Positions 9,794 through 19,140 of a stretch of DNA of 28,181 nt are shown here, piece after piece (the stretch's first letter is position 1; every line of letters starts with the position of its first letter). The notes beneath the pieces were generated by a model. It made no database searches, was not told the DNA's origin, and saw nothing but the letters and a program-made list of their open reading frames with translations. This DNA is from Myxococcota bacterium (GTDB taxonomy: Bacteria; Myxococcota; UBA4151): assembly GCA_028823075.1 (NCBI GenBank), contig JAPKCE010000001.1:1-28181 (forward strand). Reading direction: 5' to 3'. Made by a program: the position numbers and the translations under genes.

Positions 9794-10581
9794 GTTGGCT
9801 GGGCGTTGATCTGGGGGGTACTTGGCTGCGCAGCGGTGAGGCAGAGCCCCGGCGGAGCGCAGGTCTAAGCGCCGAAACGTTGATCGCCCAACTTGCCGAA
9901 CAGGCGAAGGCCGAAGGGAAAACGGGGCTTGCCATCAGTTTTGCCGGTTGGTTGAGCGACGACGGAAGCTGCGCTGAAGCGGCGCCCAACCTCTCATGGA
10001 ACAGAACGCCTCTGAGCGCCTTGGCCGCTGATTATGGCCTCGACTGTCACCTGGAAAACGATGTTGATGCGCGCGCCTGGGGTGAATGGATAAACCGACA
10101 AAAATCCAATCCCGGCGGCGATATGCTGGTGATTAACGCGGGCAGTGGCTTTGCCCTTGGCATGGTGCTTGACCATCGGCTGCGGCGCGGAGCGAGGCGC
10201 CGTGCTGGCGAGGTAGGGCATTGGCGGCCCGGGCTTAAAGGGCGTTGCGGGTGTGGGGCGCTAGGTTGTGCCGAGAGCCTGCTTGGAGCGGCTCACCATG
10301 AGCCCTCGGACTTCGATAAAACGGCGCTTCGCCAGCGCTGGTTAGACTTGGCTGTTGCCACCCTGGCTCCGGTTATTGCCGCCCTTGACCCCGGTCAAAC
10401 CATCGCAACAGGCGGCCTTCTCGACCATCGTCCCGAGCTTCGTCTTGAGCTGCAAACCCGCTTGCGCCAGGCACTTCCTGAGGCCTGGTTTGGTGGGTTC
10501 GAGTTACTTCCTTCGGTGGGTGGTGAAGCTTTGGCTCGCCTCGGTGTACTCGACCTGGCGCGCCGGGCGCAAAAGGGTTAG
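9790..10581 (+). CDS. ROK-family sugar kinase (~263 aa; probable CTG start)
   Basis: The frame upstream of the track's TTG (9880) encodes LSWLGVDLGGTWLR, the ROK/ASKHA phosphate-1 motif. It is followed by ENDVDARAWGE, GEVGH and CGCGALGCAE. An in-frame TGA lies at 9739-9741 and there is no ATG/GTG/TTG between it and 9880. Confidence 0.82.
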   Translation: MSWLGVDLGGTWLRSGEAEPRRSAGLSAETLIAQLAEQAKAEGKTGLAISFAGWLSDDGSCAEAAPNLSWNRTPLSALAADYGLDCHLENDVDARAWGEWINRQKSNPGGDMLVINAGSGFALGMVLDHRLRRGARRRAGEVGHWRPGLKGRCGCGALGCAESLLGAAHHEPSDFDKTALRQRWLDLAVATLAPVIAALDPGQTIATGGLLDHRPELRLELQTRLRQALPEAWFGGFELLPSVGGEALARLGVLDLARRAQKG

Positions 10582-10591
10582 GCGCCGGCCT

Positions 10592-11581
10592 ATGAACTGG
10601 ACGCGCAGACGTTGCCCTGATTGCGGGCAGATGATGGTTGAAGAGGAGGGCAGCAGTTGCCCCTGCCCTGCTTGTGGTCGGCAGATTGGGCCTGAGTCGA
10701 TCATCCCCGAAGATACAGAAGAAGAGCCGCCAGCCGAAGCGCTCGACGACGAAGAAAAGCCGGAGAATAAATCCGACGAGCCCGATGCTGAAGAATGGAA
10801 TTTGGGCGAACCGATGCACCGGGTGCTGTGGTTCTGCTTGGTGGCTCCGAACCGTTTACCTTTAGCCGTGATGTTTCGCAGTTTGCGCTGGGTTTTTTCC
10901 TTCGCTTGGATCGGTCAAATACTGCTTCAAGGGGGCGCGTTAGTTATTGGCTCAGCCTTGCTGGTTGCCAGCGCCGACGAGGTTAACCTGCTGCGTGAAA
11001 TAGCTGCCGCCAGTGCCAAGCAGGTTGAAGGAGGGCCCGAAGCCCGACGTCTGCGCATCGCACAAGAGCAACTCTGCACTTTGACGATGATCGGGCCTGA
11101 GCAGCGTTTACTCTGTGCGTTAAATCCTAGCCTATCAGCGCTCAAAAATGTCGGGGAACAGGCAAAAGGGCGGCTTGATGCCATCGAAAGACTTCGGCAG
11201 CCTAGTGATCCAGAAGCTTGGCTCAGCGTTTTGGGCGATGCGATGATCTTTTTGCTCATGATGCTGGTTCCTCTTTGGGGTATGCTCGGACTTGCGCGCC
11301 ATGCCGATGCCTTCGCATTGGCCTTAAAGGTGATCGCATTCGGCCAGGTTCCGATGGCTGTCAGCGCGGTTATCAGCGCGCTTCTCATGAGCTTTGCAGG
11401 CACAATCGGTCTCTCGCTCGGCTTGACGCTGCTGGTCAGCGGCTTTGTCTGGAGCATGGCCGCCTCGGTGGGTTGTTTGATACGCTTCGGTTCCTTAGCG
11501 CAGCGCCAGGCTGTCATGACAGTGCTGGTGATTTTACTCTTTAATCTGACTATGCTGACCTCGCTCGCGGGAAACCTATGA
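10592..11581 (+). CDS. Uncharacterised membrane protein: N-terminal zinc ribbon, acidic linker, multi-TM (Yip1-like?) domain, ~329 aa
   Basis: ATG at 10592, 10 nt after the ROK stop. Contains CPDCG...CPACG, then EDTEEEPPAEALDDEEKPENKSDEPDAEE, then roughly 5-6 hydrophobic segments. The Yip1 resemblance is inference from topology only. Confidence 0.7.
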   Translation: MNWTRRRCPDCGQMMVEEEGSSCPCPACGRQIGPESIIPEDTEEEPPAEALDDEEKPENKSDEPDAEEWNLGEPMHRVLWFCLVAPNRLPLAVMFRSLRWVFSFAWIGQILLQGGALVIGSALLVASADEVNLLREIAAASAKQVEGGPEARRLRIAQEQLCTLTMIGPEQRLLCALNPSLSALKNVGEQAKGRLDAIERLRQPSDPEAWLSVLGDAMIFLLMMLVPLWGMLGLARHADAFALALKVIAFGQVPMAVSAVISALLMSFAGTIGLSLGLTLLVSGFVWSMAASVGCLIRFGSLAQRQAVMTVLVILLFNLTMLTSLAGNL

Positions 11582-12924: not shown

Positions 12925-15900
12925 TTACGAGCCGATTTTTACGGCAGGAAAGGTTGCTGATTGACCGGCGGCCAATTCACGCCGTTCACCATTGGTCGAC
13001 TCCAGCATTTCGCGTAGGCGCCGAGTGAGCACCGTGAACAGCCCGTTGAGCACCTCGACGCGATCGGCGACAAGGTCGAGAAAGTCCTGGCGGTCGATGA
13101 CCAACAACTCGACACCATCGCTGCGTCGTGCGGCAGTTGCCGAGGCGGGCCTAGGCTTACGATCGAGAAAGCCGACCTGACCAAAGCTCTCGAAAGCTCC
13201 TAAACGCAGCAGAAAAATGCCGTCGCGATGAAAGCTAACGTCGCCTGAGATGATTAGGAAAAGGGCGGTCGAAGGATCGTGTTCTCGGTAAATCGCTTCG
13301 CCAGGCTGATAATGTTCCGTGCGAGCTAGGTCGGCTACCGCCGCTAATTCGTCGATGTTGAGTTCGCTAAACAGCTCCACGCGCTGCAGCAAAAAGATGC
13401 GATCGATCAATTCATCCGACATGCGGTCCTCCGGCAAAATACTGACGTCTAATGCGGGTCTCGGCAAGCCCGAACGGCTCAGGCAGCGCCCGGCGATGGC
13501 CGCCAGGGTGCGGTCGCTCGCCTCGGCAATTTCAGTGGCCATATCATGAGATAAGCTGGGCTCTACCGTAGCCTCGGCACGCTCAAGCTCGTTCAGTAGC
13601 ATCTGTTTGAGGGGGTGATGGGCGAGGCTCACATCGAGCAGTTCGAGTGCATCGCCTCGGCTCGCTCGGTTGCCGTGGACCAAAACCCTTGTGACCGCGG
13701 TAATAAGCTTTCGGTCACCCTGAAGAGCAAATAGTTTCAGACAACTATCGAGCACCTGACTATGCCTGCTCTGTACCGCTCGGTACAGGAGGTTGAAGCG
13801 TTTCGGGTCGACCGCCAAGGCCGTCCATTGTTGGCGTAGGGCGAACAAACGACGAATGTGACGCTCGATGGAAGCATGCGCCCAAGTGGTGTCGAGGCCC
13901 GATTTTAACCACGGTTTATCGTGGACTAAACGGGATAAGGAGATAGCGACTCGGTACTGTAAAAAAGGGTCGTCTTCGGGATTTGAGCGCAGCAGAAGAT
14001 CGGCTGCTTGAGCACTGCCGATCATGCGCAGAACGCGAGGAAGTTCTTGGCGTAGCCGTAGGCTAATCTGCGGGTCGTTTAGCCAGTTTTCAGCATCTTC
14101 AATAAGGCGGTCGCCGTAGGCAGCTAGAGCCTGTCTAACGCTTACCCGCAGCGATCTGCGCATGAGCAATTGGGCGAGCTCGGGTAGCGCCTCCATGAGT
14201 TGAAGCTGCCCACAGCTGTCGGCTGCCAAGCGCATCACGCTAGGTTCTTCGTCGCGCAGCAGTTCCAGTAAAAATAAGGACCAGTCCCCCTCAGGGAGAT
14301 TGCCGATTAGGCGAGCAAACTCACGCCGGTATCCAGGTTTCCCGTTGCGGATATAAGAAAAGGAACCGCGTACCAAGGCAACGCCCCGAGCGCGCCTTTC
14401 CGGGCATGCGAAGAGGGCTTCGATACCGGCGCTTCGCAGAGCGGGGTCGGTGTTTTCATCAGCGATCATCGGCTCGAGCAGGTCGGCGCTTCGCAGGGGG
14501 TCAATCAGCAACAAAGCGCGCGCTGCCGCCGCTCGGCTGCGCCTGTCTTTACTGTGTCTTACAATGTCCTCTAGTTGGGGCCAGAGCTGGTGCCTTCGTC
14601 GATGCGATGCCCAGTCGATAGCCAGCAAGCGCACGCGCTCGTCGCTGTGGCCTAGCAATTGAGGCAGGCGGGGCGCCAGATCGAACGTTGAGTTGTTCAA
14701 TAAACGTAAGGCGCCGAGGGCTCGGTTTGCCTCCGGATGGTCGAGCATTTTGACTAAGATCTGCAGCGACGAGGCGTCGTCGAGCACCATGGGGTTCTGT
14801 TCTTCATCTCGGTTTCGTCTGGCTCTTCCGGTGATCTTGCGGTTCAAACTCTCCGCATAATCTTTGCGTAACACGCGGATGATAACGCTGATTAGCGCGA
14901 CGATGAGGAGTACGCCGATGGGGTGAATAGCTTGAGGCCAAAACAGACCAAGACCAAGCAGCAGCAGCCCGCAGATACCACTGCCAACCTTTTTAACTGT
15001 GCCATCGAGCAGGGCGCGCAAAGAGCCTCGGATCGGCGCTGGGATTGGGTTGTAAAGCAGAGCGACGGCCGCCGCTGTTACCGAAAATGAACCCACCGAC
15101 TGAACAACCTTTAAAGTGTATAAAGGGGTGATGCTCTGTGAAAAGGCGATGGCTGTGCCGGCTGCGACGGCGACAGCGAGGGGGATCAGCATGAGGAAGG
15201 GAAAAAGTCCCATGCGGGTAAGCAAAAGTCGCGAGAAAAAGAGCTGAAAGACCAGGGCTATCATACCGGCATCGGCGTTGTAGGAGCCGAACAACGCGTT
15301 CATTTCAGCTACGTCTCGCTGATTAGCGACAGCCGAACGGAAAAGGAAATCAACCATTGCTGAGAGCAGCGATAAACTGACCACCAAAGCCCCGAGAAGT
15401 TTTGGGTAACGCTCCGCTCGGGTGTAGTGTAGCCCGGCGTTTATGCGTGCTTTTCCACCTGTTTTTCGGGGCACAGCGGTGGCTCCGGAAGAACGCCCGA
15501 TCAGTCGAAACACCGGTATGGCTAGCAGCAGCAAGAACCCAGCTGCTACAACCTGTGAGGCTGGGTGGATGGCCATTGATAACTGCTCGACCGCGGCCCC
15601 GCCGATGACGCTTCCTGCCATTCCTGCGGCGCCGATGATGCCGAGCACGCGCTTACTGGTGCGCAGGTCGAAGACCTCGCTCAAGGTCCCCCAAAACAGG
15701 ATGGACAGTAAGGTGGTGTAGGTTTCACCCAAAATATACAGAACCGGTTGTACGCCAGGTAGATCGACCCAGGCCATCGCGCCGACCGCGATCAAGCAAA
15801 ATGCGCTGATGCGCAGAGCGTACTTGCCCACGGCGTAAGCGGAATAATGCGCTAGCGGGCGAGCGAGCATGTAGGAACCAAAAGCTACCGACCCGGCACT

Positions 15901-16083
15901 TAAAACGTATAATGCAGGTAGGGTTTGAGCCGAGTGATTACTAAGAAAAAGGGCGTTAGCGGCAGCCTTTACCCCCACGACACCGGCGAGAAACACGGCG
16001 AAAAAAAGCATCGAGGCGAGCGCTGCCCATTCTTGATTTTTCGGTACTCCGAGTCGGCGTACTAATAGCCGCATCCCGCGCAT
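12925..16083 (-). CDS. NTT (Npt1/Npt2, TLC)-like MFS transporter fused to HEAT repeats and a C-terminal cyclic-nucleotide-binding domain
   Basis: About 12 hydrophobic segments in the first ~415 aa, including FWGTLSEVFDLRTSKRVLGIIG and YNPIP...R...LDG. An Ala/Leu/Arg-rich helical-repeat middle follows (e.g. LLRDEEPSVMRLAADSCGQL). The C-terminus reads LFSEL...GEAIYREHDPSTALFLIISGDV...FGQVGFLDRKPRPASATA. Confidence 0.8.
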   Translation of the reverse strand: MRGMRLLVRRLGVPKNQEWAALASMLFFAVFLAGVVGVKAAANALFLSNHSAQTLPALYVLSAGSVAFGSYMLARPLAHYSAYAVGKYALRISAFCLIAVGAMAWVDLPGVQPVLYILGETYTTLLSILFWGTLSEVFDLRTSKRVLGIIGAAGMAGSVIGGAAVEQLSMAIHPASQVVAAGFLLLLAIPVFRLIGRSSGATAVPRKTGGKARINAGLHYTRAERYPKLLGALVVSLSLLSAMVDFLFRSAVANQRDVAEMNALFGSYNADAGMIALVFQLFFSRLLLTRMGLFPFLMLIPLAVAVAAGTAIAFSQSITPLYTLKVVQSVGSFSVTAAAVALLYNPIPAPIRGSLRALLDGTVKKVGSGICGLLLLGLGLFWPQAIHPIGVLLIVALISVIIRVLRKDYAESLNRKITGRARRNRDEEQNPMVLDDASSLQILVKMLDHPEANRALGALRLLNNSTFDLAPRLPQLLGHSDERVRLLAIDWASHRRRHQLWPQLEDIVRHSKDRRSRAAAARALLLIDPLRSADLLEPMIADENTDPALRSAGIEALFACPERRARGVALVRGSFSYIRNGKPGYRREFARLIGNLPEGDWSLFLLELLRDEEPSVMRLAADSCGQLQLMEALPELAQLLMRRSLRVSVRQALAAYGDRLIEDAENWLNDPQISLRLRQELPRVLRMIGSAQAADLLLRSNPEDDPFLQYRVAISLSRLVHDKPWLKSGLDTTWAHASIERHIRRLFALRQQWTALAVDPKRFNLLYRAVQSRHSQVLDSCLKLFALQGDRKLITAVTRVLVHGNRASRGDALELLDVSLAHHPLKQMLLNELERAEATVEPSLSHDMATEIAEASDRTLAAIAGRCLSRSGLPRPALDVSILPEDRMSDELIDRIFLLQRVELFSELNIDELAAVADLARTEHYQPGEAIYREHDPSTALFLIISGDVSFHRDGIFLLRLGAFESFGQVGFLDRKPRPASATAARRSDGVELLVIDRQDFLDLVADRVEVLNGLFTVLTRRLREMLESTNGERRELAAGQSATFPAVKIGS

Positions 16084-16220
16084 GAACCCACCATTTCTAC
16101 AGCGTTAGCCGCCGCGTATCAGCGAGGTTTATGTGACTGCTGGCCGCGGGTTTTGCAAGGTGTTCGGGGCGCTAGGACTTGAAGGGTTGACGAATTAAGG
16201 GTGGGTCGATGTCGCATTGA

Positions 16221-17372: not shown

Positions 17373-17761
17373 GCGGCCTTTTCATCTTATCTTTGGCGCT
17401 GCTCGTCGATGGCCATCATGCGCTCCCCGCTCAACCCGGCGAGGTCGCTTGTTGGCAGGCAGAAGGCGCGCTCAGAACGCACCTTTTGAGCGGTCGTCGG
17501 CCGCAGCGCAGACGCGCGCTTATCCTGCTTGAGCGCTGCTCGTTCACGCTTGATTGGGCGCGTTTACGCGCCGACAACGACCCTGAGATGGCGCTCGTGG
17601 CTTGGCGTTACAGTTTGCAAAACGCAGTCGTCGACGACCCGCGTTGGGCGCAGGCTTTACAGCAACTTCCCAAGGCTCAAGGTCGCAGCGTCTTGCGCCT
17701 TCACAATAAGCGGCGCAGGGCCAATTTGGCTCCCGGACTACCCATCGAGGATGTGCGCTGA
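17369..17761 (+). CDS. Small hypothetical secreted protein (130 aa)
   Basis: Overlaps both neighbours (GTGA upstream, TGATG downstream), which supports a real gene. Hydrophobic N-terminus SGLFILSLALLV; no recognisable motif. Confidence 0.55.
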   Translation: MSGLFILSLALLVDGHHALPAQPGEVACWQAEGALRTHLLSGRRPQRRRALILLERCSFTLDWARLRADNDPEMALVAWRYSLQNAVVDDPRWAQALQQLPKAQGRSVLRLHNKRRRANLAPGLPIEDVR

Positions 17762-19140
17762 TGTTCTTATTACTTCTTGCGGTGGCGACGCAAAACCCGC
17801 TGACTTTGGTGTATACGGGTGATCGTATGGGCAAGGTTGAACCGTGCGGTTGCCCGCAAAACCCTATGGGTCATATCGCCCGCCAGGTCGCGGCCATCGA
17901 CGGTTATCGCTCAAGTGGGGAAAATTACCTGTTCTTTGATCTCGGAAATCTGTTTTTCGAATCGCTTCAGAGCCCCAAGGAATTGCGCGAACAGCATGCG
18001 CGTCGAGCGGCTATTTTAAGCCGCAGCGTGGCGCGTATGCAGCTTGATTTTTTAGTGCCGGGCCCCACGGATTTCCACGCTGGGTTTGAAGGTTATAAAC
18101 GTTTGGTATCGGCATCAAAAACGCCCGTACTGGCGGCCGACTTAAGCACAAAGGATGGGCTGCCAGCCTTTGAGAGTCATCGGGTTTTTAAGCGCGCAGG
18201 TAAACGTATTTTAGTGATCGGCATCGCCGGGTTTACCCCGCAGGGGAGCGAGTTTGTGTTGCAGGATGCCCTCGATACTGTGCGGAGCATTCGCGCAAAG
18301 GCTGGGGCGGTTGATATAACGATCGTTGCATCCCATCTGGATCGCCCGGCGGCGCTCAGACTTGCCAGCGAGGAGCCAGGTTTAGCAGCCGTTTTGGTGG
18401 CCGATAATCACCTGCACCTGATTCCCAAAGAGGCAGGGGGAGCGGTGGTTGTCGGTAGTTCGAAGCAGGGCAAACACCTGGCTGAACTCAAACTTTGGCA
18501 GCGTCAAAGCGGTGCTTACGCCGGCGGTATGAAGATGCGCCGTTTACAGATAAAACTGCGCAAGGCCAGCGGCGCTGAACGCGCCGTTTTACAACAAGAA
18601 CTAGACGGCCTAAACGCGGGGAATACCTTTAAGTATCGCATCGAAGCGATGGGTGAGCAGCGGCCAGAAGACGCCGAAGTGGCTACCTGGGTTAAAGCGT
18701 ATGTGCATTTTGTTGGGCGCATGGAGGCGGCGCGCGGCGTGGCTCCTCCGGGCTACGATGGGTCGGGTGATTTCGCTGGGTTTGAGGTTTGTGCTGCTTG
18801 TCATGGTAAAATTAACGAGCAGTGGAAAAACACTCGCCACGCCCACGCCTACCAAAGCCTGCTCGACCGAGGGCAGCAACTCGACCGCGAATGCATCGCT
18901 TGTCACAGCGCGGGCTGGCGTCACCCTGGAGGGTTTTCGGACCCGCGCAGCGTTGGAATCCTTAAAAATGTGCAATGTGAAAGCTGTCACGGACCCGGAA
19001 AAGCACATGCTCAGAGCGGCGATAAAGCGCTGATCGAGCGCGGCAAGGGCGAGGCAAAATTTTGCCATCGTTGCCATCAAGAAGAGCTTGAGACCGGCTT
19101 CACCGAAGCTACCCATTTACCGCTTATAAAGCACTGGTGA
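17761..19140 (+). CDS. UshA/5'-nucleotidase-like metallophosphoesterase N-domain fused to a tetraheme cytochrome c554-like domain
   Basis: N-domain motifs LTLVYTGD...EPCGCP...ARQ, FFDLGN, PGPTDF, RILVIGI and IVASH. Four CxxCH motifs at 18790, 18892, 18976 and 19063. The W..T.HAHA after heme 1 and CESCHGPG..H are typical of c554-like domains. Confidence 0.82.
   Translation: MFLLLLAVATQNPLTLVYTGDRMGKVEPCGCPQNPMGHIARQVAAIDGYRSSGENYLFFDLGNLFFESLQSPKELREQHARRAAILSRSVARMQLDFLVPGPTDFHAGFEGYKRLVSASKTPVLAADLSTKDGLPAFESHRVFKRAGKRILVIGIAGFTPQGSEFVLQDALDTVRSIRAKAGAVDITIVASHLDRPAALRLASEEPGLAAVLVADNHLHLIPKEAGGAVVVGSSKQGKHLAELKLWQRQSGAYAGGMKMRRLQIKLRKASGAERAVLQQELDGLNAGNTFKYRIEAMGEQRPEDAEVATWVKAYVHFVGRMEAARGVAPPGYDGSGDFAGFEVCAACHGKINEQWKNTRHAHAYQSLLDRGQQLDRECIACHSAGWRHPGGFSDPRSVGILKNVQCESCHGPGKAHAQSGDKALIERGKGEAKFCHRCHQEELETGFTEATHLPLIKHW

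Follow-up and report, generated by a model that had tools for sequence, protein, structure and literature searches.

The presence of a carrier of the nucleotide transporter (NTT) family is commonly taken as a sign of energy parasitism, and in genome papers any match to its Pfam family, TLC, is still annotated as an 'ATP/ADP translocase'. What, then, does such a carrier do in a free-living bacterium when it is joined to a putative sensor domain? We addressed this question for a 28,181-nucleotide stretch of DNA (the window) from a Myxococcota bacterium of the UBA4151 lineage (GenBank assembly GCA_028823075.1, contig JAPKCE010000001.1, positions 1 to 28,181), which encodes a protein, P0001, with an NTT-type membrane domain, a HEAT-like alpha-solenoid and a C-terminal cyclic nucleotide-binding domain (cNBD). 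The analysis shows the identity of these domains, their topology, the family to which the protein belongs, its residue pattern and its distribution; its ligand, substrate, direction of transport and gating are inferred. We propose that P0001 is an NTT-type carrier gated from the cytoplasm, whose nucleotide-like substrate has fewer phosphates than ATP; this reading is tentative, and we assign it a probability of roughly 0.42.

The domains of P0001 and their family

P0001 is encoded by a single open reading frame (ORF; 12925-16083, minus strand) with an ATG start, 1052 codons and no internal stops, and its full-length homologues measure 1010-1100 residues. Pfam scans placed all three domains above their curated cut-offs: TLC (PF03219, 31.2 bits against a cut-off of 21, residues 114-340), HEAT_2 (PF13646, 51.2 bits, with a weaker match to HEAT) and cNMP_binding (PF00027, 53.1 bits, residues 923-1006). 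Domain boundaries were set by an AlphaFold2 model built from 28 full-length relatives (predicted local distance difference test, pLDDT, 86.9; predicted template-modelling score, pTM, 0.77; Table 1). The model contains twelve long membrane helices spanning residues 15-418 and a wholly helical solenoid with a pLDDT of ~90, and falls below a pLDDT of 50 in the disordered linker (residues 422-433) and in the tail region (residues 1031-1052). The original prediction for this DNA, made from the sequence alone, had described such a three-part protein of 1052 residues, with membrane, helical-repeat and cyclic nucleotide-binding parts; the ORF, the Pfam matches and the model agree with it, and its approximate domain boundaries lie within ~50-100 nt of those in the model.

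The same prediction held the membrane domain to be NTT-like rather than a member of another branch of the major facilitator superfamily (MFS), and three kinds of comparison concur. First, TLC scored above its cut-off, and in 21 of the 28 relatives as well, whereas the general MFS family MFS_1 reached 17.3 bits, under its cut-off of 33.4. Second, a profile of 15 membrane domains taken from Myxococcota, searched against all PDB chain sequences, matched only the plastid ATP/ADP translocator AtNTT1 (E = 1.4e-17) and its counterpart in Chlamydia pneumoniae, CpNTT1 (5.2e-15), and other MFS transporters were absent from this search of every PDB chain even at E<=10. Third, the top structure found by VIA-align was AtNTT1 (9j3m, Z 37.7, root-mean-square deviation 2.8 Å over 404 aligned residues; 9j3l, Z 33.1), at least 6 Z units above the best non-NTT MFS structure, LacY (Z 31.4). 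The N-terminal 12-helix domain is thus a true NTT/TLC carrier homologue. P0001 shares the 12-helix MFS fold and sequence homology (E 1e-17) with AtNTT1 and CpNTT1 (9j3j, 9j3l and 9j3m; 9j3n and 9j3o; transporter classification 2.A.12), but its membrane domain is ~60 residues shorter than theirs and is followed by ~630 extra cytoplasmic residues. Homology to NTT-HEAT proteins with and without a cNBD is collinear and full-length, and our unrooted tree of membrane domains was built without canonical NTT sequences. A search for close homologues of the membrane domain in stand-alone or split form gave contig-end fragments and one distant protein of 470 residues only.

Because the loops carry 32 Lys or Arg residues on the predicted inner side and 1 on the outer side, the topology of the carrier is N-in/C-in, which places both the solenoid and the sensor in the cytoplasm. 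The solenoid gave a weak NblB-like match and AlphaRep matches among PDB sequences, and an ESM Atlas search with it returned generic HEAT clusters only. The cNBD matched PKA, PKG and CRP domains among PDB sequences at E values of 1e-11 to 1e-8, and the cNBD of MloK1 was matched as well.

This architecture was described by Major, Embley and Williams (Genome Biol Evol, 2017; PMC5381601), as the original prediction supposed in calling it not new. In that study, NTT-HEAT fusions were monophyletic, widespread in free-living bacteria including 'Deltaproteobacteria', and uncharacterised as of 2017, with the cNBD forming part of the same protein or having its own gene a few nucleotides further on (PMC5381601). 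P0001 has the same three domains, in the same order and from the same Pfam families (PF03219, PF13646/PF02985 and PF00027); structurally there is no difference, and it is a further member of the family, from a Myxococcota lineage. What we add is the loss, throughout the family, of the equivalents of two functional lysines, a Gln/Arg-Pro sensor pocket, a near-universal presence in Myxococcota and neighbours of UshA type. The prediction had also stated that no demonstrated substrate was known, and a full-text literature search found none.

Of the 301 Myxococcota genomes sampled, 253 have a match to the membrane domain (E<=1e-5), among them 214 of the 255 high-quality ones, and 128 of 137 genera are represented; the 301 include one unpublished genome (G195), counted in tallies only. 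Most of the top-scoring matches lay within ORFs of 1010-1100 residues. The NTT-HEAT(-cNBD) family is therefore a near-universal, core component of free-living Myxococcota. The membrane-domain profile was also searched against 1.8 billion cluster representatives, of which 13,611 matched at E<=0.001 and 3,073 did so at E<=1e-30, the former being clusters at 50% identity that may include canonical NTTs. Nearly all of the 150 best matches were fused proteins, and among 204 retrieved relatives, 91 had the membrane, HEAT and cNBD parts and 98 the membrane and HEAT parts. The closest relatives come from metagenome-assembled genomes (MAGs) of Myxococcota, and a single-protein locus search gave three close relatives only; the alignment of membrane domains lacked a sufficiently conserved stretch for such a search. 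A full-length orthologue with 75% identity is also carried by an assembly from a single cell, whose label reads 'uncultured Candidatus Hydrogenedens sp.' (L040, CACGMS010000005.1); by its coordinates this assembly appears to be the same-genus genome G044, and the label is probably a misclassification. Two Myxococcota MAGs likewise carry the full-length orthologue.

Table 1. Features of the P0001 gene, with positions in the window.
Feature	Residues	Position	Strand	Evidence
NTT-HEAT-cNBD fusion gene (P0001), 1052 residues		12925..16083	-	ORF list and translation, three Pfam domains, full-length homologues
NTT/TLC-type MFS carrier domain, 12 membrane helices	1-418	14830..16083	-	Pfam TLC, PDB profile search, VIA-align
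Short basic/acidic linker	419-436	14776..14829	-	Mostly low confidence in AlphaFold2 model
Cytoplasmic HEAT-like alpha-solenoid, ~24 helices	437-870	13474..14775	-	Pfam HEAT_2, AlphaFold2 model
cNBD: beta-barrel, then long C-terminal helix (1009-1037, 29 residues)	890-1037	12973..13416	-	PF00027, model
Phosphate-binding cassette (PBC), FGQVGFLDRKPRPASA	967-982	13138..13185	-	cNBD alignments
Disordered C-terminal tail	1038-1052	12928..12972	-	Low pLDDT

The carrier pocket and its likely substrates

Mutagenesis of AtNTT1 has assigned K155 to nucleotide binding, K527 to ATP and other nucleoside triphosphates, and E245 and E385 to translocation (PMC3306366; PMC4256464). We fixed the AtNTT1 numbering by adding 84 to the PDB chain index, which reproduces all four tested residue types. 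Two of these four charged residues, which are typical of canonical NTTs, are kept in P0001: E245 corresponds to E120, also kept in relatives, and E385 to D245, which is invariant in the 28 relatives and Asp in 179 of a diverse set of 189. The two lysines are replaced. K155 corresponds to Y59, a position that is Tyr in 168 of the 189 relatives and never Lys, and K527 to S368, which is variable in relatives and small or hydrophobic; Lys is the majority residue at neither position. What anchors the alignment at the K527 position is a Pro, three residues before it, that is conserved in the cNBD-less clade.

The membrane helices also conserve K39, N43, Y59, Y116, E120, D245 and R249, and across the 189 relatives E120, D245, R/K249, K/R39, W131 and a loop of the form R352-x3-R356-x3-D360 are kept. 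K144 is likewise conserved among the positions common to the carrier domain and NTTs. For E245, for E385 and the basic residue next to it, and for two loops of AtNTT1 and CpNTT1 ('EAK' and K-x3-K-x3-D), the equivalents in the P0001 family are conserved. Since the buried residues common to NTTs are conserved, we take the carrier to be, by prediction, a working secondary transporter and not a decayed anchor. The same conservation bears on the idea that P0001 is a transceptor or scaffold, in which the carrier has ceased to transport and instead detects a cue from the periplasm or membrane, while partner proteins are recruited by the HEAT arm. HEAT repeats are typical protein-protein interaction modules, and the non-fused NTT4 of S. 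negevensis failed to transport nucleotides (both in PMC5381601), but buried polar or charged membrane residues and NTT-like cytoplasmic loop motifs as strongly conserved as those in the 189 relatives are expected of an active alternating-access carrier, and we consider a transceptor very unlikely.

Our reading of the residue pattern is that the alternating-access machinery would be intact and the phosphate-binding part of the site altered. Because the equivalents of K155 and K527 are lost, P0001 is probably not a classical ATP/ADP exchanger. Such an exchanger, an ATP/ADP(+Pi) antiporter, would import ATP from lysed prey or neighbours and be gated by cyclic AMP (cAMP) so as to run when needed. 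Myxococcota are predators, and the fold and best homologues of the membrane domain are those of ATP/ADP translocators. Moreover, ATP/ADP translocases have been invoked for predators in recent genomics (PMC13755416), and cAMP-tuned ATP uptake was proposed by Major et al. (PMC5381601). Against this, neither of the ADP/ATP-binding lysines of AtNTT1 is retained anywhere in the family, extracellular ATP must cross the outer membrane and evade periplasmic nucleotidases, and nearly all free-living Myxococcota, with genomes of 9-13 Mb, have a member of the family. The host is a free-living bacterium that produces purines and ATP itself: purM and atpD are both present in the assembly, and the gene is therefore not an energy importer of the parasite type. 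We regard ATP import as quite unlikely.

The loss of the same two lysines, which are the ADP/ATP-binding residues of AtNTT1, suggests instead a substrate with fewer phosphates than ATP, such as a nucleoside mono- or diphosphate. Another possibility would be a carrier for a non-nucleotide solute on the NTT scaffold, for instance another phosphorylated or anionic metabolite. Such a substrate is compatible with the change of two of the four functionally tested residues and with the lack of a universal neighbour that indicates nucleotides (see below), but every characterised NTT carries nucleotides or NAD (PMC5381601), the sensor has a nucleotide-binding fold, and UshA-type neighbours occur in two lineages. 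In our estimate a non-nucleotide substrate is unlikely.

The sensor pocket and its split counterpart

Canonical PBCs follow the motif FGE[LIV]AL[LIMV]x[PV]R[ANQV] (PMC2246266). The cassette of P0001, FGQVGFLDRKPRPASA, keeps the phosphate-binding Arg (R978, equivalent to Arg209), has Q969 in place of the canonical Glu (Glu200) and carries P979 after the Arg. Its spacing is identical to that of PKA, with a canonical length and the beta-barrel present, and the equivalents of Gly169 (G947) and Gly199 (G968) are invariant in the 28 relatives. Among 93 cNBDs of the family, Arg is found at the R978 position in ~80 and Gln is the commonest residue at the Q969 position (38 of 93); the combinations are G-Q...R-P in 36, G-E...R-P in 11 and the canonical G-E...R-[STA] in 22. 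Arg-Pro is present in 13 of 14 myxobacterial orthologues. Epac1, too, has Gln (Q270) where the PBC Glu binds the ribose 2'-OH, and it binds cAMP (PMC4300089). P0001 and the cAMP-binding domain of Epac1 share this Gln (Q969 here) and the PBC Arg, but P0001 has Pro after the Arg, and its effector is a carrier and not a guanine nucleotide exchange factor. On the basis of this cassette, a phosphate-bearing ligand for the cNBD is likely.

A transport domain followed by a regulatory cytoplasmic cNBD is also found in the sperm Na+/H+ exchanger SLC9C1, in MloK1 and in HCN/CNG channels, which offer a functional analogy for P0001. Their transport domains are unrelated to that of P0001 (an NhaA fold or voltage-gated-like channels), and they have no HEAT solenoid. 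We rejected SLC9C1 as an instance of the same architecture, as the whole-chain Foldseek TM-scores were ~0.1 and were driven by the cNBD alone.

The genome also encodes a second NTT-HEAT protein on another contig (C603; L001:662-3505:+), which is 24% identical to P0001 and collinear with it through the whole solenoid, to residue ~865; the paralogue is truncated by the contig edge. In close relatives this paralogue measures 973-978 residues and has no fused cNBD (e.g. L046:8627-11548:+); directly downstream, and translationally coupled to it by a 7-nt overlap, lies a gene for a stand-alone cNBD of 141 residues (L046:11542-11967:+), whose cassette is of the canonical type, G-E...P-R-N-A. Split and fused NTT-HEAT/cNBD forms therefore occur side by side in the lineage, matching the coexistence of the two in the family of Major et al. 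(2017), and this shows the cNBD to be a constant functional partner of the carrier. In the close relatives, an alpha/beta-hydrolase gene precedes the cNBD-less paralogue.

We propose the following mechanism. P0001 is an inner-membrane protein with its solenoid and cNBD in the cytoplasm below the inner gate of the carrier. A small phosphate-bearing ligand, most likely cAMP or cyclic GMP (cGMP) made by the class III cyclases of the genome, would bind the C-terminal domain, and the solenoid would relay the resulting change to the carrier, so that transport is switched or tuned. The substrate would be a nucleotide, or an anion resembling one, that the carrier imports from the periplasm or exchanges with it. 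The assembly (3.0 Mb, 86% complete) contains 17 class III nucleotidyl-cyclase domains, an unusually dense cyclic-nucleotide signalling repertoire for its genome size.

Gene neighbourhood and meaning for the family

P0001 is flanked upstream by a divergent operon whose exported products are a metzincin-like lipoprotein, a small protein and an UshA-like/tetrahaem protein; its other neighbour, a convergent gene, encodes an Xaa-Pro aminopeptidase. The divergent promoter region (16084-16220) contained no inverted repeat. The N-terminal domain of the UshA-like fusion (17761-18780, plus strand) weakly matches 5'-nucleotidase (2z1a, E 1.3e-4) and is followed by four CxxCH haems, and because of these haems the protein must be periplasmic. 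Homologues of this N-terminal domain occur in 218 of the 301 Myxococcota genomes. The synteny of the window is kept only within its family-level relatives (f1), and we dropped a link between the carrier and the UshA-like cytochrome beyond that family, since the homologues lie on other contigs or megabases away. Most matches to the UshA-like domain outside f1 carry exactly one in-frame TGA, which may encode selenocysteine at a position that is Cys in this genome; the original prediction had pointed out a CGC motif there (17845-17853).

A second UshA-type protein accompanies the carrier in another family (f10). In eight genera of f10, a gene for an UshA-family lipoprotein of ~520 residues (PDB 3ivd match, 5e-24; Pfam 5_nucleotid_C) lies ~1.3 kb downstream of the orthologue, and, reading from coordinate tables, carrier orthologue and nucleotidase occur together in 57 of the 67 listed genomes with a close nucleotidase orthologue. 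Between the two stands one conserved ORF on the opposite strand. This intervening ORF (~366 residues; L035:12801-13901:-, with orthologous stretches in L033 and L034) has no Pfam match, and conservation is stronger in its minus frame (50% identity to L034) than in the plus frame (42%). Such recurrence, in two families and with a different UshA-type protein in each, suggests a link to periplasmic nucleotide metabolism.

In seven other lineages that we examined, an UshA- or nucleotidase-type neighbour was not seen, and an all-against-all comparison of 12 more distant loci found no universal neighbour and gave lineage-specific partners only; these include an RDD protein, and many of the neighbours have no Pfam match. 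In one genome of family f5 (G115), the adjacent gene encodes a generic Metallophos protein with no solved relative and no 5'-nucleotidase C-terminal domain, and we count it as weak support only. In three f5 genomes, a radical-SAM gene (PF19864 and PF04055) lies directly upstream of the orthologue (L029:7675-9231:+, L032:7783-9363:+ and L027:5603-7234:+), at a gap of 3 nt in two of the three and an unclear one in L027; it looks like a lineage-specific operon partner. Elsewhere in the window, a ROK-family ORF (9880-10581, plus strand) and an ORF of 408 residues (10355-11581, plus strand) overlap by 227 nt as listed; the latter has no Pfam match and weak zinc-ribbon-like matches only, and its true start probably lies further downstream.

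The neighbourhood bears on the direction of transport as well. P0001 might work as an exporter, by which enzymes in the periplasm are supplied with ATP or a different nucleotide, with the cNBD limiting the drain. Its gene stands beside an 11-kb block of exported proteins that includes the periplasmic UshA-like domain, and a high cytoplasmic ATP/ADP ratio would be expected to push an exchanger toward ATP export. Yet no exported kinase-like partner was found beside the gene or beside the 12 more distant myxobacterial orthologues, and the missing lysines weigh against ATP, so that we judge export to be an unlikely role.

It is important to point out that several observations weigh against the reading that we favour. 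In the carrier pocket, the K155 mapping rests on a weak, low-scoring N-terminal segment of the hidden Markov model alignment, two lysines at a distance of one helical turn from the K527 position (K364 and K365) could stand in for the missing one, and microsporidian NTTs without K155 still transport purine nucleotides (PMC4256464). In the sensor, ~13 of the 93 family cNBDs (~14%) lack the PBC Arg or are gapped there, and the Pro that follows the Arg falls outside the canonical [ANQV] set (PMC2246266); the ligand may therefore not be a 3',5'-cyclic nucleotide. The neighbourhood is conserved only within families, the nucleotidase genes are not in the operon of the carrier, and the f10 link may be inherited synteny. 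Finally, the full-text literature search turned up no fused protein of this family for which transport or binding had been measured. Of the overall reading in the original prediction, the NTT-like domain, the known architecture and the undemonstrated substrate hold, and second-messenger gating is plausible, with a sensor pocket that departs from the canonical one by the Gln, the Pro and, in some relatives, the loss of the Arg. It had also suggested that nucleotides might be scavenged from lysed cells, an idea for which the nearby genes for exported UshA-type nucleotidases in two lineages are the sole contextual clue.

More specific versions of the gated carrier can be imagined, to which we give only a slim chance and in which its substrates would be nucleotides with a single phosphate rather than ATP and ADP: the fused NTT-HEAT(-cNBD) proteins could be the nucleoside-monophosphate importer of bacterial predators, or a cAMP/cGMP transporter opened by its own substrate. 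Both fit the lost phosphate-binding lysines, the retained carrier core and the periplasmic 5'-nucleotidase-type neighbours, none of which demonstrates them. Uptake of intact nucleoside monophosphates was reportedly described for Bdellovibrio, to judge from titles of physiological studies of 1975-1985 in the reference lists of PMC13689555 and PMC7529429.

The interest of P0001 lies mainly in the large size of its family, its unexplained function and its presumed tractable orthologues. The large-genome family f10, which carries orthologues, presumably includes genetically tractable species such as Myxococcus xanthus, and the function would thus be accessible by knockout and uptake assays. For annotation, fused NTT-HEAT(-cNBD) genes should not count as evidence of ATP theft. 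If the monophosphate version were true, the family would be the never-identified uptake system for intact nucleoside monophosphates in predators; if the cAMP/cGMP version were true, social myxobacteria could use it to release or clear cyclic nucleotides.

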